Assembly (NCBI RefSeq): GCF_044324785.1
Contig: NZ_CP172127.1
DNA from: Escherichia coli
GTDB lineage: Bacteria > Pseudomonadota > Gammaproteobacteria > Enterobacterales > Enterobacteriaceae
Direction: 5' to 3' (one strand)
DNA length: 64,000 bases
Translations under genes and position numbers: made by a program
Notes under the pieces: model-generated
The model's database searches: none
What the model was told of the DNA's origin: nothing
Seen by the model: the letters and a program-made list of their open reading frames with translations, nothing else
In this document: in pieces, positions 20,624 through 57,830 of the stretch
Layout of the letters: each line of letters opens with the position of its first letter
How positions within the stretch are numbered: position 1 is the stretch's first letter

Positions 20624-20655
20624 AAACGCGAGGTCTTAGCCTCGCGTTTGTCTTT
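20624..20655. terminator. hairpin terminator between convergent yciN and sohB
   Basis: aaacgcgagg-tcttag-cctcgcgttt then ttgtctttt. Confidence 0.75.
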
Positions 20656-21704
20656 TACATCAATGGCTTTTGACCCCGCTGCCACCAGCGTAGCAACAAT
20701 CGATCGGCGCTCTCTGCCGCGCTGCCGGTGAATCGGTCAATGAGTCGTTTACGCTGCATATAGCGTACATTGACCACTTCACGGCCTTCCATCAGGCTAA
20801 GAATAACTTCATCACTGGTGTTGATTTCATCAACCAGGCCTTTCTCTACCGCCTGTTGTCCGTACCAGTGTTCACCCGTTGCCACCTGTTCAATATCCAG
20901 AGACGGACGCATACGCTTCACAAAATCTTTAAATAACTGATGCGTTTCGTTCAGCTCTTCGCGGAATTTCTCCCGCCCTTCTTCGGTGTTTTCACCCAGC
21001 AAGGTCAGCGTGCGCTTATACTGCCCGGCGGTGTGCAGTTCGATATCAATATCTTTGCTTTTCAGGAAGCGGTTAAAGTTGGGCATTTGTGCCACCACGC
21101 CAATGGAACCCACAATAGCAAACGGTGCGGAAACAATTTTGTCCGCCACACAGGCCATCATGTAACCGCCGCTGGCAGCGACTTTGTCTACCGTAACAGT
21201 TAAAGGAATGTTTTTATCACGCAGACGCTGCAGCTGCGAAGCCGCCAACCCGTAACCATGCACCATGCCACCAGGGCTTTCCAGACGGAGCACAACCTGA
21301 TCCTGCGGTTTGAATGCTGCGAGTACCGCCGTTATCTCTTCACGTAGCGAGTTCACTTCATGGGCGTCCATGCTGCCTTTAAAATCCAGCACCCAGACGC
21401 GAGGTTTACTGTCAGTTGCCACCTCGCCCAGTTTGGCTTTCGCTTTTGCTGCTTTCGCTTCTTGCTTGTGCTTTTTCTTCTGCGCTTTGTGCCACTGTTT
21501 TTGCTGATGTGAGTCCATCAGCGCCGCGGCCAGTTCTTCTTTCATCTCCTTATACTGTTCGCTGAGATTGTTGACCCGTAACTCGCCACGCTGGCGTTTA
21601 TTACGTTGAGCAACATTGACAATAATGGCGGCAATCGCCGCAATCGCTAGCACAACGGTAACGATTTTCGCCAAAAACAAACCATATTCAGACAACAATT
21701 CCAC
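20655..21704 (-). CDS. sohB: periplasmic serine protease SohB (S49 family)
   Basis: 349-aa ORF with N-terminal TM segment and S49 peptidase-like body. Confidence 0.92.
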   Translation of the reverse strand: MELLSEYGLFLAKIVTVVLAIAAIAAIIVNVAQRNKRQRGELRVNNLSEQYKEMKEELAAALMDSHQQKQWHKAQKKKHKQEAKAAKAKAKLGEVATDSKPRVWVLDFKGSMDAHEVNSLREEITAVLAAFKPQDQVVLRLESPGGMVHGYGLAASQLQRLRDKNIPLTVTVDKVAASGGYMMACVADKIVSAPFAIVGSIGVVAQMPNFNRFLKSKDIDIELHTAGQYKRTLTLLGENTEEGREKFREELNETHQLFKDFVKRMRPSLDIEQVATGEHWYGQQAVEKGLVDEINTSDEVILSLMEGREVVNVRYMQRKRLIDRFTGSAAESADRLLLRWWQRGQKPLM

Positions 21705-21923: not shown

Positions 21924-22682
21924 ATGCATTACCAGCCAAAACAAGATTTACTCAATGATCGCATTATCCTGGTGACGGGAGCCAGTGATGGTATTGGTCG
22001 TGAAGCCGCGATGACGTATGCACGCTATGGTGCGACAGTGATTCTGTTGGGCCGTAATGAAGAAAAATTACGTCAGGTAGCCAGCCACATAAACGAAGAA
22101 ACTGGGCGTCAGCCACAGTGGTTTATTCTCGATTTGCTGACCTGCACGTCCGAAGATTGCCAACAACTGGCACAGCGCATTGCCGTTAATTATCCACGCC
22201 TGGATGGTGTTTTGCATAATGCCGGATTGCTCGGCGATGTTTGCCCAATGAGCGAACAAAATCCGCAGGTCTGGCAGGACGTCATGCAGGTCAACGTTAA
22301 TGCCACCTTTATGCTCACCCAGGCACTGCTTCCTTTATTACTCAAATCGGACGCCGGTTCACTGGTCTTTACTTCATCAAGCGTTGGACGTCAGGGACGA
22401 GCCAACTGGGGCGCATATGCAGCGTCGAAATTTGCCACCGAAGGGATGATGCAGGTACTGGCCGATGAATATCAGCAGCGCCTGCGCGTCAACTGCATTA
22501 ACCCAGGCGGTACGCGCACCGCAATGCGTGCCAGCGCCTTTCCGACCGAAGATCCACAGAAACTTAAAACCCCCGCTGATATCATGCCGCTCTACCTCTG
22601 GCTGATGGGCGATGACAGCCGCCGTAAGACCGGCATGACCTTTGACGCCCAACCGGGCCGTAAACCAGGAATTTCCCAATGA
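21924..22682 (+). CDS. yciK: short-chain dehydrogenase/reductase YciK
   Basis: 252-aa ORF with Rossmann motif VTGASDGIGRE and YAASK catalytic motif. Confidence 0.9.
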   Translation: MHYQPKQDLLNDRIILVTGASDGIGREAAMTYARYGATVILLGRNEEKLRQVASHINEETGRQPQWFILDLLTCTSEDCQQLAQRIAVNYPRLDGVLHNAGLLGDVCPMSEQNPQVWQDVMQVNVNATFMLTQALLPLLLKSDAGSLVFTSSSVGRQGRANWGAYAASKFATEGMMQVLADEYQQRLRVNCINPGGTRTAMRASAFPTEDPQKLKTPADIMPLYLWLMGDDSRRKTGMTFDAQPGRKPGISQ

Positions 22683-23269
22683 GTGATGAACGCTACCAAC
22701 AGCGTCAGCAGCGAGTGAAAGAAAAAGTAGATGCTCGTGTGGCCCAGGCCCAGGATGAACGCGGTATTATCATCGTCTTTACCGGCAATGGAAAAGGCAA
22801 AACCACCGCGGCATTTGGTACGGCAACACGCGCAGTTGGTCACGGAAAAAAAGTGGGCGTCGTGCAGTTTATTAAAGGCACCTGGCCTAACGGCGAACGA
22901 AAACTGCTGGAACCACACGGCGTTGAATTTCAGGTGATGGCAACGGGCTTTACCTGGGATACACAAAATCGCGAATCTGATACCGCCGCCTGTCGCGAAG
23001 TCTGGCAACATGCAAAGCGGATGCTTGCCAATCCTTCACTGGATATGGTTTTGCTCGATGAGCTGACGTATATGGTGGCGTATGACTATTTGCCACTGAA
23101 AGAAGTGGTGCAGGCGTTAAATGAACGTCCAAATCAGCAAACTGTCATTATTACAGGTCGGGGCTGTCATCGGGATATTCTTGAACTGGCGGATACGGTG
23201 AGTGAATTGCGCCCCATCAAACATGCGTTTGATGCCGGTGTAAAAGCGCAGATAGGGATTGACTACTAA
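22679..23269 (+). CDS. cobO: cob(I)yrinic acid a,c-diamide adenosyltransferase (CobO/BtuR)
   Basis: 196-aa ORF with P-loop GNGKGKTTAAFG; start overlaps yciK stop by 4 nt. Confidence 0.9.
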   Translation: MSDERYQQRQQRVKEKVDARVAQAQDERGIIIVFTGNGKGKTTAAFGTATRAVGHGKKVGVVQFIKGTWPNGERKLLEPHGVEFQVMATGFTWDTQNRESDTAACREVWQHAKRMLANPSLDMVLLDELTYMVAYDYLPLKEVVQALNERPNQQTVIITGRGCHRDILELADTVSELRPIKHAFDAGVKAQIGIDY

Positions 23270-23272
23270 GTG

Positions 23273-23306
23273 AAAGCACCTCAAAAGAAGCCTCTTGAGG
23301 TGCTTT
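23273..23306. terminator. 12-bp-stem hairpin at the cobO 3' end and left islet boundary
   Basis: aaagcacctcaa-aagaagcctc-ttgaggtgcttt read directly; no clean T-run on either strand, so terminator function is uncertain. Confidence 0.4.
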
Positions 23307-23320
23307 AATCATGATTATAT

Positions 23321-23629
23321 TCAAGCGGCAATAGCGAAATTCAGAATACGTGTAATCTCATTCAAATGTCCCTGATATGCTTCATGATTCTCAGCGTCAA
23401 CATCTTCAATAAATAATATCAGTTCAGTAATTAACGCATTAGCATCGTCATAATTTATCCCGGCTAACTCTGGCGAAGTTTCAGTACCGTAGTTAATCGT
23501 CAGGTTGTTCATAACTGTGAGGATATGGATAAAATATTTATGACAAACATTACATGTGGTTTTATTACCCAAAGTATTATACAGCATATCAAGTAATGCC
23601 AGTATTCTACGGTTTTGCACATCGTTCAT
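23321..23629 (-). CDS. hypothetical 102-aa protein, islet gene 2 (no signal peptide, CNVCH motif, acidic C-terminal half)
   Basis: ORF preceded by strong SD aggagg about 7 nt upstream of ATG; starts 10 nt after the stop of the upstream lipoprotein gene. Confidence 0.55.
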   Translation of the reverse strand: MNDVQNRRILALLDMLYNTLGNKTTCNVCHKYFIHILTVMNNLTINYGTETSPELAGINYDDANALITELILFIEDVDAENHEAYQGHLNEITRILNFAIAA

Positions 23630-23639
23630 AAAAAGCCTC

Positions 23640-24641
23640 CTATAACATTATTCCGCTGGCAATAAGTAATTTTGCCAGCCCCTCAGACGCCTTTAACCCA
23701 CTAATGACCTGTGCGCGTAATATTTCATTTAATCTTTTTTGTTCAGCTGCCGTGCGTGTTTTATTAACGTATAAGCTTTTCAGATAATCACCCTTATCTA
23801 TAAAGGCATTTAAAGCCTCAATCGCAGGCATGGCAGGTGCCGATGCCTGTAGTCTGGTTTCATTCACATTGATTACTGAACTTAGAAACTCCTTCCTGTT
23901 TTTCAGAGTGTTAAACTCTGTATTCTTAGAGTTTTTAGATGCCGTATTATAATAAAACATATTATCATGCACATTCGCAAAGGTATAATTTTCAATCTTA
24001 TTGCTTTTTGTATAAATATCATTGCGCAAAACTGCCATGTTCTTTATAAGTCTTACCCAGTTTTCATCTACCGTTTTGCCTATTTTTCCAGAATTGACTT
24101 TAATTATATATAACTCATTGAAATAATTTACCAAATCTTTAACCGCTGCTGCAGATTGAGCTAAATCTTTGCTATGTGAAACACCAAGTAGTGTTTGTGC
24201 GTTGTTTGCGTGATCCAGAGCCTGTTTAAGTAATGCCACTTGCTGACTTTCCGTAGTTGCCATATCCTTTGTCAGAAGTTCCACATAAGCGCTCATGCTA
24301 TTAATGACTTCCATTGAAGCCAGTAATTTTTCTTTCTCGAAAGGGACTAATTGTACTTGTTTTGTATTTGGCCCTGAACGCTGGCATAATTTTCCGCCAT
24401 TCCCATCACCGCCTATATCAATGGTATAATCAGGTCGCAGGGCACAATCCGGATTAGTCGCGTAGAAATTAACAAGGAAGTTTTCACGAGAAGCATAGTA
24501 TTGTTTAAAGAAACTTGCATTCGCCGCTACTGCTTTGTTACCCGCAGTAATAACAGTTTCAGCTTGTTCGTTTTTCAATGCTTCAGTTGCACAACCTGAA
24601 AGCATTAACAGCGATAGAAATATTCCACTATATCTAATCAT
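23640..24641 (-). CDS. hypothetical 333-aa lipoprotein, islet gene 1 (signal peptide + lipobox LSGC, Ala at +2)
   Basis: 1-kb ORF in roughly 30% GC DNA; MIRYSGIFLSLLMLSGCATE...; SD aagagg upstream; Asn/Lys/Ser-rich mature region. Confidence 0.65.
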   Translation of the reverse strand: MIRYSGIFLSLLMLSGCATEALKNEQAETVITAGNKAVAANASFFKQYYASRENFLVNFYATNPDCALRPDYTIDIGGDGNGGKLCQRSGPNTKQVQLVPFEKEKLLASMEVINSMSAYVELLTKDMATTESQQVALLKQALDHANNAQTLLGVSHSKDLAQSAAAVKDLVNYFNELYIIKVNSGKIGKTVDENWVRLIKNMAVLRNDIYTKSNKIENYTFANVHDNMFYYNTASKNSKNTEFNTLKNRKEFLSSVINVNETRLQASAPAMPAIEALNAFIDKGDYLKSLYVNKTRTAAEQKRLNEILRAQVISGLKASEGLAKLLIASGIML

Positions 24642-24766
24642 AACCCACCTCTTGACGTTGAGTTTATCTCAGATAATTAAATAGTAATGTGGCTATTTCC
24701 GGGTATTATTCATAAGCAAGTATGAAATTAAATTAAAATACTGCGACTATTTATCATGCTTCAAAT

Positions 24767-24791
24767 GAAGAAAAGGCCCCGCAGGGCCTTT
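24767..24791 (-). terminator. rho-independent terminator of rluB
   Basis: On the minus strand, stem aaggccc-tgcg-gggcctt followed by ttttcttc. Confidence 0.7.
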
Positions 24792-24810
24792 ATTTTATAC
24801 TTATCTTAAA

Positions 24811-25686
24811 TTAACCGTTATTATTACGTCCACCAGAACGGCGACCACCGCTCACCTGGCTATGACGTTTCACCGCACGACGAATCTGATTTGCTTTCAT
24901 GCGACGACGATCTTTTTCTACAGCAACTTTAGAGCTGGTTTCTGGTGGCAGTTCCACCAGTTCACGCAGATAGTTAGTCTGGGCGAGGTCCAGCTCCGTC
25001 CAGCCGCCGCGTGGCAGACCTTTCGGCAGTGGGATATCACCGTAACGAACACGAATCAGGCGGCTTACCTGCACACCAACCGCTTCCCACAGACGACGAA
25101 CTTCACGGTTACGGCCTTCGGTCAGAGTCACGTTGTACCACTGGTTGATCCCTTCGCCGCCGCTGAACTTAATGGTTTTAAAGGCTGCCGGACCATCTTC
25201 AAGCTGCACGCCACTACTCAAATCACGCAGTTTCGCGTCGTCAACCTGACCAAATACACGCACGGCATATTCACGTTCAACTTCACGGCTTGGATGCATT
25301 AAACGGTTTGCCAGTTCACCGTCGGTGGTGAAGAGCAACAGACCACAGGTGTTAACGTCCAGACGACCTACGGCAATCCAGCGTGCGCCACGCAGCTTTG
25401 GCAGACGGTCAAACACCGTTGGACGCCCTTCCGGATCGTTACGGGTACACAACTCACCTTCCGGTTTGTAATAGGCCAGAACGCGACAAATTTGTTCAGC
25501 GGACTCACGTACCGAAATCAGGTGACCATCGATACGGATTTTCAATCCAGGGGTAATTTCAACACGATCGCCGAGTTTAGCAATTTTGCCATCAACACTC
25601 ACACGACCGGCTTCAATAATAGATTCGATTTCACGGCGAGAACCGTGGCCGGCACGCGCCAGCACTTTCTGTAGCTTTTCGCTCAT
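24811..25686 (-). CDS. rluB: 23S rRNA pseudouridine synthase RluB
   Basis: 291-aa ORF with S4 domain N-terminus, RsuA/RluB-type core and Arg/Gly-rich C-terminal tail. Confidence 0.93.
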
Positions 25687-25896: not shown

Positions 25897-27792
25897 TTAC
25901 CAACCACCACCGCCTCCGCCACCCGCACCGCCGCCAGCACCACCACCGGAATAGCTTCGCCCCAACAAACTGGTATAGGCCCCGCAACTCAGGTGCGTCT
26001 GCAATGAGAATAAAACGCCACTACGGGCAATTTCCGGGGCGCTAACAGCCGCTGTGAGTGATGGGGTGATACGTTCTGCCCATTCTCTGCCAAGGTTTGC
26101 CGAGACCGCCCAACCTAACAATGCGTAATCCAGTTTCCGTGTTTCCCCTTTCCGCCGCCGCCCACTGTGTGTTGCCGCCTCTTTACGCGCAAGATAGTTA
26201 ACGATAGCTTCGCCGTGGGCATAACGTTGCTGCCCAGTTTGGGTAAACTTTGGCAGAAAAATATACCCAATGCCAGTGAGATAACCGGTCAGGAAAACAG
26301 AGCTAAAATAACCCGCTGGCATATACCAGTAAAAGAATACATCTCCGACATTGATATAGAGAGAATAGAAGGCCACGCCTGAACAAATCAGTGGTAAAAA
26401 CAAAGTGATGATTACACGATTAACGCAAGGCTTGTCATCATCGCGGGCAAACAAAAGCTCAAGGGAACAAAATAAGAAAGGAAGAAGCCAGCAGATCATA
26501 ATAAACATATCGCCTACCAGACTCATTCCTGCCCAGCCTACGGGACTCAGGTTACCGTAGAGAATGACCGCCAATATTGCCATTCCGCCCCATTGCAAAA
26601 ACGCATCAGGTCGGTAAAACGAAGACTTTTTACGCGGCAGATAAAATTTCTGCATCCGTAAAAATGCACTGCGTAAGACTCTGTTGCGTCTCCCCGTAAG
26701 AACGACCTTATCGCCTTTACGAAATAACGCTTCCAGTAATAACTGCTCTGCGGGCAGTAATACCGCATTATTTCTGGTCGCGCCTTCATTAACACGAATC
26801 AGGATTTGCTGGTTCTTGTCATACTGATCTTTCAGATGAATTTTGCCTTTCACAATCAGATTTACGATATCGGCACAAAAACCTTTATCGTCGTAAACCA
26901 GTTTCGCATCGAGACGTAACATGCCGGGCGTGTAATCTGGCGGAATGACATCGGTTTCAATCACATCTACCGGCGTAAATTGTGGCCTGCGCTTCCAGAG
27001 ATATAACCATCCACACGCCAGGAACAGACACGGAAACCAAATTAACAACGATGACGTAGAGGGTAAAAGAAGATGGCTGAAAATATTCGTCGTTTGTGGT
27101 GCCGAGGCATTACCAAGTAAAGCGTGAGGCCAGCGGTAGAGGACCGTGAAGTCTTCACGATAAAACGGATCGCGGGATTCAATTCTTCCGTCCTCAAGGA
27201 TGCGGCCATTTCGATATGTGTCGCCCTCTTCTCCAGTAAAGAGATCAATTTCGCTAAATGGATTACCCGCAATATCAGGCAACTGGAGAGAAAATCGGGT
27301 CTTATAGATTTCAAACGGCCACTTGTTACCGGTCACGTTCCAGATTAACAGATCTGAATCTCCCTCACGCAGGAAAGCATTTTTAACCTGATAATGAATT
27401 TGATAATGATAGTCGCCTTGAGGCAAGAAACGTTGTTTATCGCCCACGACAATACTCATTAACCCGATATGCCAGTCAAGATGCCAGGGTTCAGGAATAC
27501 CATCACGGGTGACGCCAACAATATGATAGTTCAGCAGTGCAGCGTCCCCATTAGGCTGCATCCATAGTCGTGGTAAATCACGATAAAATCCGTGCTTAAT
27601 CTGCTGATTTCGCGCCTGAAAATGAATGTTCTCTTTGATGTCGAGCACCCCATCCAGTTGCAGGGTGGCTTCAACATCAAAGAGCGAGATCCCTTCTTCA
27701 TAAAAAGGGATCTCCGTGTTTTTCGGATAACTCAACGAAGAGAAAAAAAGCCCAACTATCAACAGCAAAATGCAGCGATATATCCCTGCCAT
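25897..27792 (-). CDS. yciQ: YciQ, large inner-membrane protein (DUF2207-like), Gly-rich C-terminus
   Basis: 631-aa ORF; synteny between rluB and yciO. Confidence 0.85.
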   Translation of the reverse strand: MAGIYRCILLLIVGLFFSSLSYPKNTEIPFYEEGISLFDVEATLQLDGVLDIKENIHFQARNQQIKHGFYRDLPRLWMQPNGDAALLNYHIVGVTRDGIPEPWHLDWHIGLMSIVVGDKQRFLPQGDYHYQIHYQVKNAFLREGDSDLLIWNVTGNKWPFEIYKTRFSLQLPDIAGNPFSEIDLFTGEEGDTYRNGRILEDGRIESRDPFYREDFTVLYRWPHALLGNASAPQTTNIFSHLLLPSTSSLLIWFPCLFLACGWLYLWKRRPQFTPVDVIETDVIPPDYTPGMLRLDAKLVYDDKGFCADIVNLIVKGKIHLKDQYDKNQQILIRVNEGATRNNAVLLPAEQLLLEALFRKGDKVVLTGRRNRVLRSAFLRMQKFYLPRKKSSFYRPDAFLQWGGMAILAVILYGNLSPVGWAGMSLVGDMFIMICWLLPFLFCSLELLFARDDDKPCVNRVIITLFLPLICSGVAFYSLYINVGDVFFYWYMPAGYFSSVFLTGYLTGIGYIFLPKFTQTGQQRYAHGEAIVNYLARKEAATHSGRRRKGETRKLDYALLGWAVSANLGREWAERITPSLTAAVSAPEIARSGVLFSLQTHLSCGAYTSLLGRSYSGGGAGGGAGGGGGGGW

Positions 27793-35316: not shown

Positions 35317-36122
35317 TGGAACGCTACGAATCTCTGTTTGCCCAGTTGAAGGAGCGCAAAGAAGGCGCATTCGTTCCTTTCGTCACGCTCGGGGATCCAG
35401 GCATTGAGCTGTCATTGAAAATTATCGATACGCTAATTGAAGCCGGTGCTGACGCGCTGGAGTTAGGCATCCCCTTCTCCGACCCACTGGCAGATGGCCC
35501 GACGATTCAAAACGCCACACTGCGTGCCTTTGCGGCAGGTGTGACCCCGGCGCAGTGCTTTGAGATGCTGGCACTCATTCGCCAGAAGCACCCGACCATT
35601 CCGATCGGCCTTTTGATGTATGCCAACCTGGTGTTTAACAAAGGCATTGATGAGTTTTATGCCCAGTGCGAGAAAGTCGGCGTCGATTCGGTGCTGGTTG
35701 CCGATGTGCCAGTGGAAGAGTCCGCGCCCTTCCGCCAGGCCGCGTTGCGTCATAATGTCGCACCTATCTTTATTTGCCCGCCGAATGCCGACGATGATTT
35801 GCTGCGCCAGATAGCCTCCTACGGCCGTGGATACACCTATTTATTGTCACGTGCGGGCGTGACCGGTGCAGAAAACCGCGCCGCGTTACCCCTCAATCAT
35901 CTGGTCACGAAGCTGAAAGAATACAATGCTGCGCCTCCATTGCAGGGATTTGGGATTTCCTCCCCGGATCAGGTAAAAGCAGCGATTGATGCAGGAGCTG
36001 CGGGCGCGATTTCTGGTTCGGCCATCGTTAAAATCATCGAGCAACATATTAATGAGCCAGAGAAAATGCTGGCGGCACTGAAAGCTTTTGTACAACCGAT
36101 GAAAGCGGCGACGCGCAGTTAA
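35316..36122 (+). CDS. trpA: tryptophan synthase alpha chain
   Basis: 268-aa [60 protein letters not shown]...; overlaps trpB stop by 1 nt. Confidence 0.97.
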
Positions 36123-36128
36123 TCCCAC

Positions 36129-36156
36129 AGCCGCCAGTTCCGCTGGCGGCATTTTA
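36129..36156 (+). terminator. trp operon terminator (trp t)
   Basis: gccgccag-ttccg-ctggcggc followed by atttt. Confidence 0.7.
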
Positions 36157-36502
36157 ACTTTCGTTAACGAAGCCGGAAAAATCCTAAATTCATTTATTAT
36201 TTATCTTTTTACCGTTTCGCTTACCCCTGTCGAACGTCAACTTACGTCATTTTTCCGCCCAACAGTAATATAATCAAACAAATTAATCCCGCAACATAAC
36301 ACCAGTAAGATCAATAATTTTCTCTAAGTCACTTATTCCTCAGGCAATTGCTAATACATCCAGAACGTTTCTCAAAATATATTTTTCCACTTTCTTCTCG
36401 TTACGCTTAATTTGACTAATTTTCATTAGTGACTAATTTTAATGAGTGTCGACACACAACACTCATATTAATGAAACAATGCAACGCAACGGGAGAAATA
36501 AC

Positions 36503-36682
36503 ATGGCCGAACATCGTGGTGGTTCAGGAAATTTCGCCGAAGACCGTGAAAAGGCATCCGACGCTGGCCGTAAAGGCGGTCAGCATAGCGGCGGTAATTT
36601 TAAAAATGATCCGCAACGCGCATCCGAAGCGGGTAAAAAAGGCGGTCAACAAAGCGGTGGTAATAAATCAGGAAAATCCTGA
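36503..36682 (+). CDS. yciG: small stress-induced protein YciG with repeated KKGGQ-SGGN motifs
   Basis: ORF 36446..36682 trimmed to MAEHRGGSGNFAEDREKASDAGRKGGQHSGGNFKNDPQRASEAGKKGGQQSGGNKSGKS. Confidence 0.8.
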   Translation: MAEHRGGSGNFAEDREKASDAGRKGGQHSGGNFKNDPQRASEAGKKGGQQSGGNKSGKS

Positions 36683-36767
36683 TTCACCGTTAATTATTAA
36701 TATCAGCTGATAAAGATAATTGCATCTGCGGGCCGTATGGCTCGCAGTGATTTCACTGGAGAAAAAT

Positions 36768-37268
36768 ATGAATATGAAGACCATTGAAGATGTATTTAAT
36801 CACCTGCTTTCAGATACCTACAGCGCAGAAAAACAATTAACCCGGGCACTGGCAAAACTCGCAAGAGCAACATCAAATGAAAAATTAAGTCAGGCTTTTC
36901 ATGCGCACCTCGAGGAAACTCATGGACAGATTGAACGTATTGATCAAGTTGTGGAATCCGAATCGAACCTGAAAATTAAGCGCATGAAATGTGTGGCAAT
37001 GGAAGGTCTCATTGAAGAAGCTAATGAGGTCATCGAAAGCACCGAGAAAAACGAAGTGCGTGATGCCGCACTGATTGCCGCTGCACAGAAAGTCGAGCAC
37101 TATGAGATCGCCAGTTACGGGACATTAGCGACGCTGGCTGAACAATTAGGTTACCGTAAAGCAGCGAAGCTTCTGAAAGAAACTCTTGAAGAAGAAAAGG
37201 CCACCGACATCAAACTGACTGATCTGGCCCTTAATAACGTAAATAAGAAAGCCGAAAATAAAGCCTGA
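36768..37268 (+). CDS. yciF: YciF (DUF892, ferritin-like stress protein)
   Basis: ORF 36720..37268 trimmed to MNMKTIEDVFNHLLSDTYSAEKQL... Confidence 0.85.
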   Translation: MNMKTIEDVFNHLLSDTYSAEKQLTRALAKLARATSNEKLSQAFHAHLEETHGQIERIDQVVESESNLKIKRMKCVAMEGLIEEANEVIESTEKNEVRDAALIAAAQKVEHYEIASYGTLATLAEQLGYRKAAKLLKETLEEEKATDIKLTDLALNNVNKKAENKA

Positions 37269-37313
37269 AATATGAACTTTAACTTTTAGTCATTTTATAA
37301 ATAGGACATTTTC

Positions 37314-37820
37314 ATGAATCGTATTGAACATTATCATGACTGGTTACGTGACGCCCACGCAATGGAAAAGCAAGCCGAATCTATGCTTGAATCCATGGCT
37401 AGTCGTATAGATAATTATCCTGAACTACGCGCTCGTATTGAACAACATCTTAGTGAAACCAAAAACCAGATTGTTCAACTGGAAACTATTCTTGATCGTA
37501 ATGACATTTCACGTTCAGTCATTAAAGATTCCATGAGTAAAATGGCTGCGCTTGGGCAGTCAATCGGTGGTATATTCCCTTCTGATGAAATAGTCAAAGG
37601 CTCTATTAGCGGATATGTCTTCGAGCAATTTGAAATCGCCTGTTACACCTCACTATTAGCAACAGCAAAAAATGCCGGTGATACAGCTTCAATTCCAACC
37701 ATCGAAGCGATTTTAAATGAGGAAAAAGAAATGGCCGACTGGCTGATTCAGCATATTCCGCAAACAACTGAGAAATTTTTAATTCGCTCTGAAACTGATG
37801 GCGTAGAAGCGAAGAAATAA
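37314..37820 (+). CDS. yciE: YciE (DUF892, ferritin-like stress protein)
   Basis: 168-aa ORF, paralogous in appearance to yciF. Confidence 0.85.
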   Translation: MNRIEHYHDWLRDAHAMEKQAESMLESMASRIDNYPELRARIEQHLSETKNQIVQLETILDRNDISRSVIKDSMSKMAALGQSIGGIFPSDEIVKGSISGYVFEQFEIACYTSLLATAKNAGDTASIPTIEAILNEEKEMADWLIQHIPQTTEKFLIRSETDGVEAKK

Positions 37821-37878: not shown

Positions 37879-38517
37879 TTAAAAACGATATCCTGCTGAG
37901 AACATAAACACCCACGGATCGAGGCGTACGCTATCGTGTTGCTGTGCACCGCCCAGCTTATAACTGGCGGTGGTATCGATATCCATGTACCAGACTGACA
38001 TGTTAACCAACCAGTCACGGTTAATCAGATAATCAACCCCCACCTGCCCGGCTGCTCCCCAGGAGTCTTTCAGACTGAGATCGGAAAGCCCCGCCTCTTT
38101 GCCATGATCGTTAAATCCATTATCAAAGAAGGTGGTGTAGTTAATACCTGCACCAACGTAAGGACGGAATTTGCTGCTGGCATCACCAAAATACCACTGC
38201 GCCATCAGTGTTGGCGGCAGATGATGAACGGTTGCAATATCGCCGGTCGCCCGGGTGCCGATTTTATGGCGGAACGGCGTCGCTGCCAGTAATTCCACAC
38301 CAATGTTGTCGGTCGCCATATAAGTAAACGTCAGGCCCAGTTGAGTGTTATTGGTCACGCTGAATCCACCCAGACTTCCTAACGTACCACCAGCACCTTC
38401 TGTTGGACGTACGGTTGCAGAACCTGCACGCATAAAAAATTCGCCTGCTTCATGCGCAAAGGCACTGCCAGAGAGAAGAGTTGTTACTGCCAAAGCCGCC
38501 ACTGTTAACTTTTTCAT
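37879..38517 (-). CDS. ompW: outer membrane protein W
   Basis: 212-aa ORF with signal peptide MKKLTVAALAVTTLLSGSAFA and C-terminal ...SAGYRF. Confidence 0.92.
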   Translation of the reverse strand: MKKLTVAALAVTTLLSGSAFAHEAGEFFMRAGSATVRPTEGAGGTLGSLGGFSVTNNTQLGLTFTYMATDNIGVELLAATPFRHKIGTRATGDIATVHHLPPTLMAQWYFGDASSKFRPYVGAGINYTTFFDNGFNDHGKEAGLSDLSLKDSWGAAGQVGVDYLINRDWLVNMSVWYMDIDTTASYKLGGAQQHDSVRLDPWVFMFSAGYRF

Positions 38518-38873
38518 ATCCGCTCCGTCGTTATGGTTATAAAAACGTGACGAATATACCTACATTGGAGTAACAAATGATCCTACATAGATCACATTAC
38601 ATATGATAATTCACCCTTTATTGATCTGGATTAATTTAGAAGTTGCATTGAGAATCCTGGTTAATGTGATTTAAATCAATTTTTAAATATTTTCGCTACG
38701 CAAATATTAACTCGCTCGCCACTAGCAGCGGTTTGCCCACGCCTGAAGGCCAGCAATTACCTCCGCTTTACAAAGATATGCTTTTCCATACAAGACCTGA
38801 TGCTGCCACCCGAGGCTTAACCAGGGTACAATTGCCCGCTAATTAACACCTGCATAAAACTCAAGGAGAGTGC

Positions 38874-40728: not shown

Positions 40729-41445
40729 TTACTGAATTTCGGTGGTGCCGTTAATTTTAAACAGGATATTCACCACAATCCCACTGCCTGGCTTACCCGG
40801 CTCATAACGCCATCTGCGCATCGCATTTTTCACCTCACGCTCAAACATGTTCGCAGGCTTGGCTGAGAGGATTTGCACGTTATCCACGCGACCATCCGGC
40901 GTGACATCAAATTTAACTTTAACCTGCCCTTCAATGCGCAATGCCTGTGCTCGTGCCGGATACTGCGGCTGATTGCGGCTTAATGCGCGTGGTCCTGAAG
41001 CCACACTTGTAACCGGCTTGCTGGTTGCAGCCGTCGCCGTACTTGATGTCGGGCGCGCGGGTGCCGTATTTTCAAACGGTGATGCCGGACGCGACTCTAC
41101 GGGTTTGACATCGCGTTTTGGCTGCTCCTGTACCTTTTTCACCGGCTTCGGTTTTGGCTTAGGTTTCGGCTTCGGCTTTTCAATGACCACCGGTGCTTCT
41201 TTTGGCGGTTCGGGGATCGGCTCAGGTTCCGGTTCTGGCTCTACCACCGGCTCCGGTGGCGGCTGAACGGCTTGTGGCGGTTCGAGATCCGCAGGCGCAA
41301 CCATCGTGACAGAAATTGGCTGCGCAGGCGCAGGTAGTTCAATAACCTGATGTACCGAGGTATAGAGCAGACCCGCCACAACAGCACCATGAATGCAGAC
41401 CGAAAGTAACGTCGGCCAGGGGAAGCGGCGAGGTAAATCAAGGGT
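40729..41445 (-). CDS. tonB: TonB energy transducer, with (EP)n/(KP)n proline-rich spacer
   Basis: ORF 40729..41499 trimmed to [29 protein letters not shown]...; [15 protein letters not shown] and [12 protein letters not shown] repeats. Confidence 0.95.
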
Positions 41446-41485
41446 CATTGAAGTCATAATCATTTCAGTAGAAAAACCAGGCCTT

Positions 41486-41515
41486 GATTTTAAATGCAAA
41501 TAGCAATCATATTCA
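41486..41515 (-). promoter_or_regulatory. tonB promoter region with Fur-box-like AT-rich repeat
   Basis: Minus-strand tgaatatgattgctatttgcatttaaaatc 40-70 nt upstream of the tonB ATG; resembles the GATAATGATAATCATTATC Fur consensus. Confidence 0.55.
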
Positions 41516-41671
41516 ATAAGGCAAGACGATCAGGATCAGTGAAAATGTCATTTTTGGCGTTATTGACCTTACTTTTTAAATGGTCTTAACAAAGACATCA
41601 TCTTTCCGTTGCAGATCTTCGCCCTTTCAAATAACGTACTTTACAACTTTCCCGAACAAGGAGTTGTGCCC

Positions 41672-41968
41672 GTGTTGTATGTTATTTACGCTCAAGACAA
41701 AGCTGATAGCCTCGAAAAACGCCTTTCCGTTCGTCCGGCACATTTAGCACGTTTACAGTTACTGCATGGTGAAGGTCGATTGTTGACCGCCGGTCCAATG
41801 CCAGCAGTAGACAGTAACGATCCAGGGGCTGCGGGATTTACTGGCTCAACCGTTATTGCTGAATTTGAATCGCTGGAAGCAGCTCAGGCCTGGGCCGATG
41901 CTGACCCGTACGTAGCGGCAGGGGTCTATGAACACGTTTCAGTGAAACCATTTAAGAAAGTGTTCTGA
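41672..41968 (+). CDS. yciI: YciI-family protein
   Basis: ORF 41609..41968 trimmed to a GTG start giving (M)[27 protein letters not shown]... Confidence 0.8.
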
Positions 41969-42268
41969 ATAGAGATTCAATATTTAAGGGCACGGTTTTT
42001 GCAACCGTGTTCTTGTTTGGCCTTTCCTTATAGGTCGGTCAGTGCATTCACCCCCACAAGCAGATAATAACTTTATCTGTATTTCTTTATATGATGTGAG
42101 CATATTCAGGAAAAATGCCCTTTCCTGACGCAGAGTTGCTCACTCAAAACCTTTGATTACTGCGGATAAAGTCATCTACTATTGTTTAACACATTCACGC
42201 GCTGCATGTATGTTCAGAAAATGTGCACGCTAAGATAATTAAACAAAATTGTGGTTACAGAGGTATCA

Positions 42269-43522
42269 GTGAGTCACTGGGCTACATTCAAACAAACAGC
42301 AACTAATTTATGGGTGACCCTACGGCACGACATTCTCGCGCTGGCCGTCTTTTTAAATGGATTGCTTATTTTTAAAACAATCTATGGTATGTCGGTCAAT
42401 TTGCTAGATATTTTCCATATCAAAGCATTTTCAGAGTTGGATCTCTCCTTGCTGGCAAACGCCCCACTATTTATGCTCGGCGTCTTTCTTGTCCTGAACT
42501 CCATTGGCTTACTGTTCCGGGCAAAGCTCGCATGGGCAATCAGTATCATTTTGTTGTTGATAGCGCTAATTTACACCCTGCATTTTTATCCCTGGCTGAA
42601 ATTTAGTATTGGATTTTGCATTTTTACGCTGGTGTTTTTGCTGATACTGCGCAAAGACTTCTCCCACAGTAGCGCCGCAGCCGGGACAATTTTCGCATTT
42701 ATTAGTTTCACGACGTTACTGTTTTACTCCACCTACGGTGCGCTTTATTTAAGCGAAGGTTTTAATCCGCGAATAGAAAGTTTGATGACCGCGTTCTATT
42801 TTTCGATAGAAACCATGTCAACCGTCGGCTATGGCGATATTGTCCCTGTTTCTGAATCAGCACGATTGTTCACTATTTCGGTCATTATTTCCGGCATTAC
42901 CGTTTTTGCCACCTCTATGACCTCAATTTTTGGTCCGCTTATCCGCGGGGGATTCAACAAACTTGTAAAAGGAAACAATCATACAATGCATCGTAAAGAT
43001 CATTTTATTGTTTGCGGACATTCGATTCTCGCCATCAATACGATCCTGCAACTGAATCAACGCGGACAAAACGTAACGGTTATCAGCAACTTGCCTGAAG
43101 ATGATATCAAGCAACTTGAGCAACGCTTAGGCGATAACGCTGATGTTATCCCCGGTGACAGTAATGACAGTTCAGTATTAAAGAAAGCGGGAATCGATCG
43201 ATGCCGGGCCATTCTGGCGCTGAGTGATAACGATGCAGATAACGCGTTTGTTGTACTCTCGGCAAAAGATATGAGCAGTGATGTCAAAACAGTTCTCGCC
43301 GTCAGTGATAGCAAAAACCTGAATAAGATTAAGATGGTACATCCGGATATCATTCTCTCGCCGCAACTGTTTGGCAGCGAAATTCTGGCGCGAGTTTTAA
43401 ATGGTGAAGAGATTAATAATGATATGCTCGTTTCAATGTTGTTGAACTCCGGTCATGGCATTTTCAGCGATAACGATGAACAAGAAACGAAAGCTGACAG
43501 TAAAGAATCGGCGCAAAAATAG
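42269..43522 (+). CDS. kch: voltage-gated potassium channel Kch (TVGYGD selectivity filter, RCK/TrkA domain)
   Basis: ORF 42251..43522 trimmed to GTG start at VSHWATFKQ; selectivity filter TVGYGD present. Confidence 0.85.
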   Translation: MSHWATFKQTATNLWVTLRHDILALAVFLNGLLIFKTIYGMSVNLLDIFHIKAFSELDLSLLANAPLFMLGVFLVLNSIGLLFRAKLAWAISIILLLIALIYTLHFYPWLKFSIGFCIFTLVFLLILRKDFSHSSAAAGTIFAFISFTTLLFYSTYGALYLSEGFNPRIESLMTAFYFSIETMSTVGYGDIVPVSESARLFTISVIISGITVFATSMTSIFGPLIRGGFNKLVKGNNHTMHRKDHFIVCGHSILAINTILQLNQRGQNVTVISNLPEDDIKQLEQRLGDNADVIPGDSNDSSVLKKAGIDRCRAILALSDNDADNAFVVLSAKDMSSDVKTVLAVSDSKNLNKIKMVHPDIILSPQLFGSEILARVLNGEEINNDMLVSMLLNSGHGIFSDNDEQETKADSKESAQK

Positions 43523-51356: not shown

Positions 51357-52093
51357 TGTTTTTTGGACTCCCTCATTATAATTACTGGTATTAACCAGCA
51401 TGTGTAATCCCGGATTGGGACCCTGCACAGGCTCGGAGACTTTCTGCTGTCAGGTTACTTTATCGTTACGGATTGCTATCACCGACTTTATTTATTCTGG
51501 TGATTCAGACGATCACCTTATGTCGATTCGTACTGTGTCTCCCCTGTCGAGACACATTATTCTTTCGCGACGCTCTTTAATTGTTAATTATTCTCATTAC
51601 CAATAAAGAATCGCCTGACGGTTGCCCGGAAAGTACCAAATGCGGTTCTTACTCGCCAATACATTTTGCAAAATTGTTAAGCAATTCTCTTTTATTGACC
51701 GTATCAGAATCTATAGCTTGTATCCATGACTTAACAAACATCTTTAAATTCAATCAAATAGAGATTGGTTAAGCATGTCTATCTTTTCTGATTACAGTTC
51801 CAGTAGTGAAATGCACAATAATTTAACAATTGATTATTATTTAGCACTTTCCTCTACCAAAGGCAGTGGAATTACTAATATCATTTCAATTATTCTTCAG
51901 CAAGCCCAGGATTATGATGTGGCGAAAATAACATGATGGTAAGGAGAAGCAGTTAAGGAAATCCTTATAACTACCTGTAATTTGAGAAGAATATTTTTAC
52001 CTATTCCTTTTGCTTTTGATAACTGCGCGGGAACAAAGTAAAAATAATGACGAAGTAAACGGAGCATGGCAGCTCCGTTTCATTTGAAAGGAA

Positions 52094-52741
52094 TTAATTA
52101 AGCAGGCCGGGGAAAATCCCCTTAATACCAGTAACGATAAATTCAATCCCCAATGCCATCAGCAATAGCCCCATAATACGCGTAATCACGTTGATGCCGG
52201 TCTGGCGTAAAACCCGTACCAGCCACGGTGCCATGCGGAACAATCCCCAGCAACATAAAGCGAACAAAGCAATAGCCACAAAGAAACCAAACAGATAGCT
52301 AATGCTGTGATAACGCGTACCCCAGACGATGGTAGAACTGATCGCCCCTGGCCCCGCCATCAACGGCAACGCCAACGGCACCACACCAATGCTTTCACGT
52401 ACCGCGGTTTCTGATTTTTCTTGCTTGTTCTGTTTATCCTCGCCAAGCTTGCCGCTGATCATCGACATCGCTATCGTCACCACCAGGATGCCCCCGGCGA
52501 TACGGAACGAATCAATTGATATACCAAAAAGTTGCAGAATCGTGTCGCCGAGAAAAAGCGAGATCCACAAGATAATGGCCACAGACAGGTTGGCTGTAAG
52601 GTTCGTTTTGTTTCGCGCTGCCGCTGTCTGATAACTGGTCATGCTGATAAAGACGGGAATAATCCCTACCGGGTTGACCAGCGCAAATAACCCGATGAAA
52701 AATTTGAAGTAAACGGGAAAATCAAAAAGGGTCTGAATCAC
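52094..52741 (-). CDS. ychE: MarC-family inner-membrane protein YchE
   Basis: 215-aa polytopic ORF; synteny between oppA and adhE. Confidence 0.85.
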   Translation of the reverse strand: MIQTLFDFPVYFKFFIGLFALVNPVGIIPVFISMTSYQTAAARNKTNLTANLSVAIILWISLFLGDTILQLFGISIDSFRIAGGILVVTIAMSMISGKLGEDKQNKQEKSETAVRESIGVVPLALPLMAGPGAISSTIVWGTRYHSISYLFGFFVAIALFALCCWGLFRMAPWLVRVLRQTGINVITRIMGLLLMALGIEFIVTGIKGIFPGLLN

Positions 52742-53217
52742 GGTTAGCTCCGAAGCAAAAGCCGGATAATGTTAGCCATAAATAAGGTTGAAAAGACGCG
52801 CTGACAATACGCCTTTTGACAGCATTTTTCACCTCCTAACTACTTAAAATTGCTATCATTCGTTATTGTTATCTGGTTGTGCAAAACATGCTAATGTAGC
52901 CACCAAATCATACTACAATTTATTAACTGTTAGCTATAATGGCGAAAAGCGATGCTGAAAGGTGTCAGCTTTGCAAAAATTTGATTTGGATCACGTAATC
53001 AGTACCCAGAAGTGAGTAATCTTGCTTACGCCACCTGGAAGTGACGCATTAGAGATAATAACTCTAATGTTTAAACTCTTTTAGTAAATCACAGTGAGTG
53101 TGAGCGCGAGTAAGCTTTTGATTTTCATCGGTTAAGCAAATCATCACCGCACTGACTATACTCTCGTATTCGAGCAGATGATTTACTAAAAAAGTTTAAC
53201 ATTATCAGGAGAGCATT

Positions 53218-55893
53218 ATGGCTGTTACTAATGTCGCTGAACTTAACGCACTCGTAGAGCGTGTAAAAAAAGCCCAGCGTGAATATGCCAGTTTCACTCA
53301 AGAGCAAGTAGACAAAATCTTCCGCGCCGCCGCTCTGGCTGCTGCAGATGCTCGAATCCCACTCGCGAAAATGGCCGTTGCCGAATCCGGCATGGGTATC
53401 GTCGAAGATAAAGTGATCAAAAACCACTTTGCTTCTGAATATATCTACAACGCCTATAAAGATGAAAAAACCTGTGGTGTTCTGTCTGAAGACGACACTT
53501 TTGGTACCATCACTATCGCTGAACCAATCGGTATTATTTGCGGTATCGTTCCGACCACTAACCCGACTTCAACTGCTATCTTCAAATCGCTGATCAGTCT
53601 GAAGACCCGTAACGCCATTATCTTCTCCCCGCACCCGCGTGCAAAAGATGCCACCAACAAAGCGGCTGATATCGTTCTGCAGGCTGCTATCGCTGCCGGT
53701 GCTCCGAAAGATCTGATCGGCTGGATCGATCAACCTTCTGTTGAACTGTCTAACGCACTGATGCACCACCCAGACATCAACCTGATCCTCGCGACTGGTG
53801 GTCCGGGCATGGTTAAAGCCGCATACAGCTCCGGTAAACCAGCTATCGGTGTAGGCGCGGGTAACACTCCAGTTGTTATTGATGAAACTGCTGATATCAA
53901 ACGTGCAGTTGCATCTGTACTGATGTCCAAAACCTTCGACAACGGCGTAATCTGTGCTTCTGAACAGTCTGTTGTTGTTGTTGACTCTGTTTATGACGCA
54001 GTACGTGAACGTTTCGCAACCCACGGCGGCTATCTGTTGCAGGGTAAAGAGCTGAAAGCTGTTCAGGACGTTATCCTGAAAAACGGTGCGCTGAACGCGG
54101 CTATCGTTGGTCAGCCAGCCTATAAAATTGCTGAACTGGCAGGCTTCTCTGTACCAGAAAACACCAAGATTCTGATCGGTGAAGTGACCGTTGTTGATGA
54201 AAGCGAACCGTTCGCACATGAAAAACTGTCCCCAACTCTGGCAATGTACCGCGCTAAAGATTTCGAAGACGCGGTAGAAAAAGCAGAGAAACTGGTAGCT
54301 ATGGGCGGTATCGGTCATACCTCTTGCCTGTACACTGACCAGGATAACCAACCGGCTCGCGTTTCTTACTTCGGTCAGAAAATGAAAACGGCTCGTATCC
54401 TGATTAACACCCCGGCTTCGCAGGGTGGTATCGGTGACCTGTATAACTTCAAACTCGCACCTTCCCTGACTCTGGGTTGTGGTTCCTGGGGTGGTAACTC
54501 CATCTCTGAAAACGTTGGTCCGAAACACCTGATCAACAAGAAAACCGTTGCTAAGCGAGCTGAAAACATGTTGTGGCACAAACTTCCGAAATCTATCTAC
54601 TTCCGCCGTGGCTCCCTGCCAATCGCGCTGGATGAAGTGATTACTGATGGCCACAAACGTGCGCTCATCGTGACTGACCGCTTCCTGTTCAACAATGGTT
54701 ATGCTGATCAGATCACTTCCGTACTGAAAGCAGCAGGCGTTGAAACTGAAGTCTTCTTCGAAGTAGAAGCTGACCCGACCCTGAGCATCGTTCGTAAAGG
54801 TGCAGAACTGGCAAACTCCTTCAAACCAGACGTGATTATCGCGCTGGGTGGTGGTTCCCCGATGGACGCCGCGAAGATCATGTGGGTCATGTACGAACAT
54901 CCGGAAACTCACTTCGAAGAACTGGCGCTGCGCTTTATGGATATCCGTAAACGTATCTACAAGTTCCCGAAAATGGGCGTGAAAGCGAAAATGATCGCTG
55001 TCACCACCACTTCTGGTACAGGTTCTGAAGTCACTCCGTTTGCGGTTGTAACTGACGACGCTACTGGTCAGAAATATCCGCTGGCAGACTATGCGCTGAC
55101 CCCGGATATGGCGATTGTCGATGCCAACCTGGTTATGGACATGCCGAAGTCCCTGTGTGCTTTCGGTGGTCTGGACGCAGTAACTCACGCCATGGAAGCT
55201 TATGTTTCTGTACTGGCATCTGAGTTCTCTGATGGTCAGGCTCTGCAGGCGCTGAAACTGCTGAAAGAATATCTGCCAGCGTCCTACCACGAAGGATCTA
55301 AAAATCCGGTAGCGCGTGAACGTGTTCACAGTGCAGCAACTATCGCGGGTATCGCGTTTGCGAACGCCTTCCTGGGTGTATGTCACTCAATGGCGCACAA
55401 ACTGGGTTCCCAGTTCCATATTCCGCACGGTCTGGCAAACGCCCTGCTGATTTGTAACGTTATTCGCTACAACGCGAACGACAACCCGACCAAGCAGACT
55501 GCATTCAGCCAGTATGACCGTCCGCAGGCTCGCCGTCGTTATGCTGAAATTGCCGACCACCTGGGTCTGAGCGCACCGGGCGACCGTACTGCTGCTAAGA
55601 TCGAGAAACTGCTGGCATGGCTGGAAACGCTGAAGGCTGAACTGGGTATTCCGAAATCTATCCGTGAAGCTGGCGTTCAGGAAGCAGACTTCCTGGCGAA
55701 TGTGGATAAACTGTCTGAAGATGCATTCGATGACCAGTGCACCGGCGCTAACCCGCGTTACCCACTGATCTCCGAGCTGAAACAGATTCTGCTGGATACC
55801 TACTACGGTCGTGATTATGTAGAAGGTGAAACTGCAGCGAAAAAAGAAGCCGCTCCGGCTAAAGCTGAGAAAAAAGCGAAGAAATCCGCTTAA
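53218..55893 (+). CDS. adhE: bifunctional acetaldehyde-CoA/alcohol dehydrogenase
   Basis: 891-aa [81 protein letters not shown]... Confidence 0.97.
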
Positions 55894-57416: not shown

Positions 57417-57830
57417 ATGAGCGAAGCACTTAAAATTCTGAACAACATCCGTACTCTTCGTGCGCAGGCAAGAGAATGTACACTTGAAACGCTGGAAGAA
57501 ATGCTGGAAAAATTAGAAGTTGTTGTTAACGAACGTCGCGAAGAAGAAAGCGCGGCTGCTGCTGAAGTTGAAGAGCGCACTCGTAAACTGCAGCAATATC
57601 GCGAAATGCTGATCGCTGACGGTATTGACCCGAACGAACTGCTGAATAGCCTTGCTGCCGTTAAATCTGGCACCAAAGCTAAACGTGCTCAGCGTCCGGC
57701 AAAATATAGCTACGTTGACGAAAACGGCGAAACTAAAACCTGGACTGGCCAGGGCCGTACTCCAGCTGTAATCAAAAAAGCAATGGATGAGCAAGGTAAA
57801 TCCCTCGACGATTTCCTGATCAAGCAATAA
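57417..57830 (+). CDS. hns: nucleoid-associated protein H-NS
   Basis: 137-aa [47 protein letters not shown]... Confidence 0.97.

Follow-up and report, generated by a model that had tools for sequence, protein, structure and literature searches.

An AT-Rich Leader Ahead of a Two-Gene Lipoprotein Cassette between rluB and cobO in Escherichia coli, with Candidate Positions for Its Promoter

Gene Content and Boundaries of the rluB–cobO Interval

The region studied here, positions 24642–24766, belongs to a 64,000-nucleotide stretch of Escherichia coli DNA (the window, by which we mean the whole stretch analyzed), and alignment of the study region with E. coli strain N3 gave 99.8% identity. On its left side lie sohB (20655–21704, minus strand), yciK (21924–22682, plus strand), and cobO/btuR (22679–23269, plus strand), followed by two minus-strand open reading frames, namely ORF2 of 102 amino acids (23321–23629) and ORF1 of 333 amino acids (23640–24641), the latter encoding a predicted lipoprotein. 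Ten nucleotides separate ORF1 from ORF2, which has a GAGG of its own. Upstream of ORF1, on the same strand, is rluB (24811–25686), whose TAA stop codon occupies 24811–24813. The two open reading frames and their flanking noncoding DNA form a cassette of 1,541 bp (23270–24810) that fills the whole intergenic space between rluB and cobO.

Comparison with cassette-free E. coli genomes defined the size of the replacement. In K-12 (locus L002, 1570–1608) the stop codons of cobO and rluB are separated by 39 bp, and the rluB–cobO gap is likewise just 39 bp in CFT073 (c1734/c1735) and in EAEC 042 (locus L023, 33341–33379). The 39-bp spacer has thus been swapped for 1,541 bp, with edges that abut both stop codons, and inspection of these edges for terminal repeats or target-site duplications found none. 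Because the replacement runs from stop codon to stop codon, the two hairpins that bound the interval (23273–23306 and 24772–24791) are to be assigned to the cassette itself. In the flanking DNA, yciQ (DUF2207) is annotated as frameshifted in N3 (locus L001, 4197–4700), and the corresponding open reading frame of the window is intact, with 631 amino acids (25897–27792).

Hairpins Flanking the Cassette

Both a terminator scan and folding identified a stem-loop, AAAGGCCC-NNNN-GGGCCTTT, at 24772–24791, 20 nt past the rluB stop codon. As RNA it reads AAAGGCCC-UGCG-GGGCCUUU, with an 8-bp stem containing five G-C pairs, a 4-nt loop, and a folding energy of about −16 kcal/mol, and it thereby combines the G+C-rich stem-loop, the U-run, and the position after a stop codon that characterize intrinsic terminators. 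The scanner classified it as terminator-like on both strands. It is followed by UUUUCUUCAUUU, an interrupted U-tract, on the minus (rluB) strand and by UUUAUUUUAU on the plus strand; of the two, the plus strand is the one on which the hairpin seems better suited to terminate transcription. Across Escherichia, the enterobacterium L007, and Citrobacter, the stem is invariant and the loop is variable. The hairpin would stop minus-strand transcripts of rluB and, on the plus strand, block antisense transcription exiting the cassette.

The initial annotation had described this element as the rluB terminator. A terminator-like hairpin is indeed present upstream of the leader, but it travels with the cassette: it is missing from K-12, in which the 39-bp spacer contains a different hairpin (TGCCGGATATGACGTCCGGCA) that is unrelated to it. 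It resembles the intrinsic bidirectional terminators found between tandem or convergent genes of E. coli in its G+C-rich 8-bp stem, 4-nt loop, T-runs on both sides, location directly past the rluB stop codon, and conserved stem with variable loop, and it differs from them in its interrupted rluB-strand U-tract and in not being used by cassette-free E. coli.

The distal end of the cassette is formed by a second hairpin (23273–23306; −20 to −22 kcal/mol), located between the convergent stop codons of cobO and ORF2. Its U-tract is poor on both strands, and it was absent from the output of the terminator scan. Since a proper U-tract is lacking on either strand, this hairpin might stabilize the RNA or serve as a noncanonical terminator.

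The Two Encoded Proteins

The N-terminus of ORF1 (MIRYSGIFLSLLMLSGC) carries the lipobox LSGC followed by Ala at +2, in agreement with the [LVI][ASTVI][GAS]C pattern of lipoproteins processed by Lgt and LspA, and all 42 family members share the lipobox Cys. Under the +2 rule, the Ala predicts sorting of ORF1 to the outer membrane. A structure predicted from the 42-sequence alignment (pLDDT 69.5) is all-α apart from one β-hairpin, which bears a hypervariable loop between Cys66 and Cys86. ORF2 encodes an acidic protein of 102 amino acids with no signal peptide. The operon appears well formed, with strong Shine–Dalgarno sequences, a gap of 10 nt between the open reading frames, and a hairpin at each end. 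The Shine–Dalgarno sequence of ORF1, AGAGGTGGG (24644–24652, minus strand), lies directly ahead of the ATG (24641–24639), so that the two together span 24639–24652; it is strong, and GGTGGG-N2-ATG is invariant across genera.

Searches of both proteins against families, defense-system models, solved structures, and folds returned no meaningful match, and the anti-phage defense models of PADLOC 2.0 gave none at E ≤ 1. The lipoprotein family has no Pfam model, both proteins are labeled hypothetical in every public record, and literature searches for the locus or the protein accessions retrieved nothing.

Distribution and Age of the Cassette

Of 5,426 complete E. coli genomes, 1,237 (∼23%) contain the 5′ part of the cassette. 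These yielded 1,243 matches, all of them at least 95% identical, nearly always one per genome, and all but one chromosomal; in every carrier E. coli record examined, the cassette was at the rluB–cobO site. Across 100,044 species-representative genomes a close relative was present in E. whittamii and E. albertii only, and we therefore regard the cassette as a rare accessory element. The rluB–cobO slot holds the same gene pair in E. albertii, E. whittamii, several Citrobacter, and the enterobacterium L007, and the Citrobacter lipoprotein is 51–52% identical at the amino acid level.

Two deeply diverged allele classes, encoding lipoproteins of 333 and 340 amino acids, coexist in E. coli. Aligned with ST131 strain SaT040, the window showed 55–75% nucleotide identity over 23290–24440 and 95–100% identity from about 24440 through the leader into rluB. 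Synonymous divergence between these two genomes was ∼1.05 in the lipoprotein gene and saturated in ORF2, compared with 0.11 in rluB. The dN/dS ratios of the cassette open reading frames ranged from 0.1 to 0.24 where estimable, which indicates that both are real genes under purifying selection and, in turn, that the operon is expressed under some condition. Positions 24642–24766 are thus part of a conserved 5′ anchor, the distal part of the locus being made up of ancient alleles. The description of the cassette as an acquired islet holds as far as its foreign composition is concerned (36.7% G+C), but the occupation of the same slot in E. albertii, E. whittamii, and Citrobacter, together with an allele dS of at least 1, makes it old at its site and not a recent import.

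The leader and the first 65 lipoprotein codons are 95–100% identical between the allele classes, and the divergence stops sharply near codon 67, just before the hypervariable Cys66–Cys86 loop. The window-type allele also occurs in E. whittamii, and the other one in E. albertii.

Remote Relatives of the Module

A profile search recovered remote full-length relatives of the lipoprotein, with identities of ∼17–25%, which share the invariant lipobox Cys, two more invariant Cys residues, and one invariant Tyr. These relatives are scattered through metagenomes and draft genomes of contrasting G+C content. A partner gene of 96–104 amino acids follows the lipoprotein gene in every relative with readable context, including all five of the remote relatives whose surroundings could be read, in which the gene for a 96–102-amino-acid protein comes directly after. 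Upstream DNA was available for four of these five pairs, and it consisted of more than 130 nt without a called gene. One remote pair (locus L015, 4001–5375; GCA_051414855.1) encodes proteins of 357 and 96 amino acids at 35% G+C and is inserted between the tail genes gpS and gpV of a P2-like prophage of 60% G+C; another adjoins a transposase gene. A module found in such varied settings most likely supplies its own promoter.

The prophage-borne pair invites comparison with prophage morons, small autonomous cassettes that bring a promoter and a terminator of their own, which the cassette resembles as a compact two-gene unit of low G+C content between hairpins. In contrast, the surroundings of the window copy are a housekeeping part of the chromosome and bear no signatures of phages or mobile elements. 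Searches of phage, IMG/VR, and plasmid collections recovered neither close nor remote relatives, and L015 is the sole phage-associated copy found, so that the link to phages consists of a single locus.

Composition of the Leader and the Initially Proposed Hexamers

The initial annotation had placed an AT-rich stretch of about 125 bp between the hairpin and the lipoprotein ATG, and the sequence bears this out: 24642–24766 contains 30.4% G+C, compared with 49% window-wide, and only 0.75% of all 125-bp windows have a G+C content as low. It had also pointed to minus-strand hexamers resembling σ70 elements, none of them compelling. The pair in question consists of a −35 candidate, TTGAAG (24759–24764), which shares bases with the terminator U-tract and with a small hairpin of 4 bp, and, 18 nt after it, a −10 candidate, TATTTT (24735–24740). 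With 9.7 bits, TTGAAG-N18-TATTTT is the top match of a σ70 position weight matrix (PWM) on the minus strand. An equal or higher score was obtained for 38% of shuffles that preserved the dinucleotides of these 130 nt and for 17–40% of 130-nt windows of cassette coding DNA, and a stricter consensus scan (9/12 matches) retrieved no minus-strand promoter site in the region. Neither the PWM with shuffles nor the consensus scan, then, detected in the region a hexamer pair of 16–18 nt spacing that resembles the σ70 consensus (TTGACA-N17-TATAAT) more closely than expected by chance, and the reservation of the initial annotation was justified.

Citrobacter and L007 have lost TTGAAG, which is invariant within Escherichia, and TATTTT falls in a stretch that differs between genera and reads CATTTT in one Escherichia haplotype. 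In Citrobacter and L007 the pair is abolished by substitutions and by an indel of 10–12 nt, which in these non-Escherichia genera sits between the −35 position and the first conserved block described below. The pair is a chance-level match, and whatever it contributes to transcription in Escherichia may be nothing at all.

Conserved Blocks in the Leader

Alignment of the DNA from the rluB stop codon to the ATG in Escherichia, L007, and Citrobacter delineated three conserved minus-strand blocks. Block b, ATAA(A/T)TAGTCGCAG (24741–24754), contains GTCGCA (24742–24747), a candidate weak −35 element. Block c, TTTCATACTTG(C/T)T(T/C)AT(G/T)AA (24709–24727), contains CATACT (24719–24724), a candidate −10 element, and also holds the imperfect dyad TTCAT-N8-ATGAA. 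Block d, (C/T)ATTAC..T.T.A.TATC.G (24670–24689), contains AATTAT/TAATAT (24673–24678), which could alternatively serve as the −10 element. A short dyad that overlaps block d, TTATC-N3-GATAA (24664–24676), is kept by Citrobacter in a different sequence (ATATCTG-CAA-CAGATAT).

The distance from GTCGCA to CATACT is exactly 17 nt in every ortholog, and the spacer sequence is free to vary; fixed spacing around a variable spacer matches the pattern expected of a −35/−10 pair. On the σ70 PWM, GTCGCA-17-CATACT reaches 4.7 bits, and such scores occur ∼16–26 times per kb per strand in the window. The invariant runs across the three clades comprise 9 nt in block b and 10 nt in block c. Their joint probability is ∼0.006 against a neutral proxy (the four-fold degenerate sites of rluB, 50% of which are invariant among the three clades) and ∼0.0004 when the mean of the region itself is used. 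These values are suggestive but not conclusive, since the blocks themselves may have anchored the alignment, in which case their significance would be inflated.

Nearly all leader variation among ∼14 Escherichia haplotypes is confined to a hypervariable 10-nt patch between blocks c and d (24698–24707, minus strand), with variants including CCCGG, CCAGG, TTCGG, and CCATG. This variability argues against a functional −35 element at that position and weakens a promoter model built on block d. As the variants center on a CCWGG site of the Dcm type, the patch may be a hotspot of deamination.

When the exact pattern of blocks b and c was searched in public metagenomes, 22 of the 25 matches were the cassette and three were unrelated chance matches. 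The pattern is thus essentially confined to the cassette, and a wider regulon motif for the block pair was ruled out.

Other readings of the leader were also examined. Rfam returned no match better than E = 1 in the region, all hits being far under the gathering scores, and the search for leader RNA structure or a riboswitch gave a fold z-score of +0.6 and no covariation. Pairing of block c with the Shine–Dalgarno sequence and ATG was rejected, as it was weak (−4.5 kcal/mol) and involved only invariant bases. None of ∼25 transcription-factor and sigma consensus sequences compared (σE, σ32, σ28, σ54, the P2 late-promoter dyad, and ∼20 transcription factors) fits the conserved blocks. An antisense small RNA ending at the plus-strand side of the hairpin was discarded as well, the plus-strand promoter-like hexamers not being conserved in Citrobacter, and among small open reading frames on both strands of the aligned leaders none was common to Escherichia and Citrobacter.

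AT-Richness and Possible Silencing by H-NS

It had further been proposed that AT-rich acquired DNA of this kind is typically silenced by H-NS, whose gene was said to lie in the same window, and that the module may therefore be cryptic in the laboratory. The hns gene is present at 57417–57827, with 100% protein identity. The cassette averages 36.7% G+C over its 1,541 bp, as expected of the AT-rich segment of an H-NS-bound locus, and it makes up the window's longest segment with less than 40% G+C (∼1.75 kb). Segments of such length and composition are usually H-NS targets. A high-affinity H-NS motif occurs in the cassette at about twice its density in the window, with zero matches within the 125 bp. 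Many promoter-like sites are found on both strands of the cassette, including antisense intragenic ones. Spurious intragenic promoters are common in AT-rich DNA, and abundant promoter-like sites are typical of DNA that is quieted by H-NS.

Given this strongly AT-rich composition, binding of H-NS is likely, and silencing of the cassette is plausible. The cassette resembles H-NS-silenced accessory genes in several respects: it is an accessory segment of 1.5 kb carried by ∼23% of strains, it has ∼37% G+C within a genome of 49–51% G+C, and it is rich in promoter-like sites on both strands. It departs from them in being no recent import, in its synteny across genera, in a 5′ end as conserved as the core flank, and in an unremarkable match to the high-affinity motif. 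The H-NS data sets found, H-NS/StpA ChIP data for CFT073 (PMC9765446) and an hns transcriptome of EAEC 042 (PMC5861252), both derive from cassette-free strains.

Additional segments below 40% G+C in the window span 36101–37700, 38401–38850, 41401–42650, and 51451–53300. The antisense promoter-like sites on the plus strand are located at 23962–23989, 23388–23417, and 23508–23535, the best of them being TTATCA-N16-TATAAT (10/12 positions).

Candidate Promoters and Alternative Explanations

We conclude that 24642–24766 is an ordinary intergenic leader/promoter region, which the initial annotation located correctly, and that the position of the promoter is not callable from the sequence alone. A promoter is expected here because the region comes directly after a conserved terminator-like hairpin and is the sole noncoding DNA upstream of a well-formed operon. 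The account that we favor, and that we hold as a whole with moderate confidence, is that of a self-contained cassette with its own weak or conditional promoter, for which GTCGCA-17-CATACT would be the best candidate, coated by H-NS and receiving minor read-through. Transcription of the cassette would then start mainly in 24642–24766, from a promoter that is weak or conditionally active. With GTCGCA at 24747–24742 and CATACT at 24724–24719, the leader would measure ∼70 nt. The putative −10 element CATACT would have A at −11 and T at −7, the most important positions, and the ATACTT core would be of the type favored by σS/σ70 promoters with poor −35 elements. H-NS probably coats the 1.5-kb cassette at ∼37% G+C and would keep its expression low in laboratory culture, and slight read-through from rluB over the imperfect U-tract is a likely secondary input. 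A promoter of the cassette's own is preferred to pure read-through because the module occurs in very different settings and has a conserved hairpin upstream.

Read-through past a leaky terminator could nevertheless be the only source of transcription, with no dedicated promoter and with the blocks acting as leader or regulator sites. The shared orientation of rluB and the cassette would permit this, no above-chance σ70 match was seen anywhere in the region, and the hairpin, with its interrupted UUUUCUUCAUUU tract on the rluB strand and its UUUAUUUUAU tract on the other, looks better suited to terminate on the opposite strand. We nonetheless consider such an arrangement unlikely, given that conservation of the hairpin stem from genus to genus speaks for a function, that remote cassettes reside in unrelated contexts and mostly behind long upstream noncoding DNA, that the blocks are spaced at a fixed distance like −35 and −10 elements, and that no stable or covarying leader structure is predicted. 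We are also doubtful that TTGAAG-N18-TATTTT (24764–24735) is a working σ70 promoter in Escherichia, in which case a leader of ∼90 nt would include blocks c and d. Its score is the highest on the strand (9.7 bits) and only a single one of the ∼14 Escherichia haplotypes departs from the two hexamers, but 38% of shuffles score equally, the −35 element overlaps the terminator U-tract, the spacer is 18 nt long, and the −10 element is without the consensus A at positions 4 and 5 and becomes CATTTT in that one haplotype. Moreover, hexamers and spacing are gone in Citrobacter and L007, though both keep the cassette and the other blocks.

A promoter closer to the gene would use AATTAT/TAATAT (24678–24673) as the −10 element with no −35 element, depending on an activator or an extended −10, and block c with its TTCAT-N8-ATGAA dyad would be the activator site, centered near −51. 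In favor of this model, block d is conserved, every clade retains A at −11 and T at −7, and an extended −10 TG is present in L007. The −35 position, however, would fall in the hypervariable patch, the distance from block c to block d is not the same in Escherichia and Citrobacter (a 1-nt difference), the site scores poorly on the PWM, and block c fits no known regulator consensus, all of which makes this placement very unlikely. Independently of these placements, the blocks could be regulator-binding sites or leader elements instead of core promoter hexamers. Our preferred reading remains a weak or conditional promoter of the cassette's own, with GTCGCA-17-CATACT as the leading candidate.

Implications for Annotation and Possible Function

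By itself, the leader matters little, since noncoding DNA is to be expected where an accessory operon follows a terminator. Its consequences for annotation are that the hairpins at both ends should be attributed to the cassette and not to the core genome, and that chance-level hexamers such as TTGAAG/TATTTT are unfit to be labeled a promoter. The cassette as a whole offers a small and clean test case, being present or absent at a single E. coli site, with two very old alleles and uncharacterized proteins, and it could serve for studying the regulation of old AT-rich accessory genes and the persistence of such alleles.

With its ancient cross-species alleles, an obligate small partner, and one prophage-borne relative, the cassette is mildly interesting, and it could hide a new surface-variation or phage-exclusion function. 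The more specific proposal of a new surface-variation or phage-exclusion/defense module under diversifying or balancing selection, with the conserved blocks targeted by a dedicated regulator, has in our judgment only a slim chance of being correct; it would fit the ancient alleles shared across species, the variable disulfide-bounded loop with its partner, and the copy resembling a prophage moron. The Escherichia alleles differ most in the predicted disulfide-bounded surface loop and in the partner protein.
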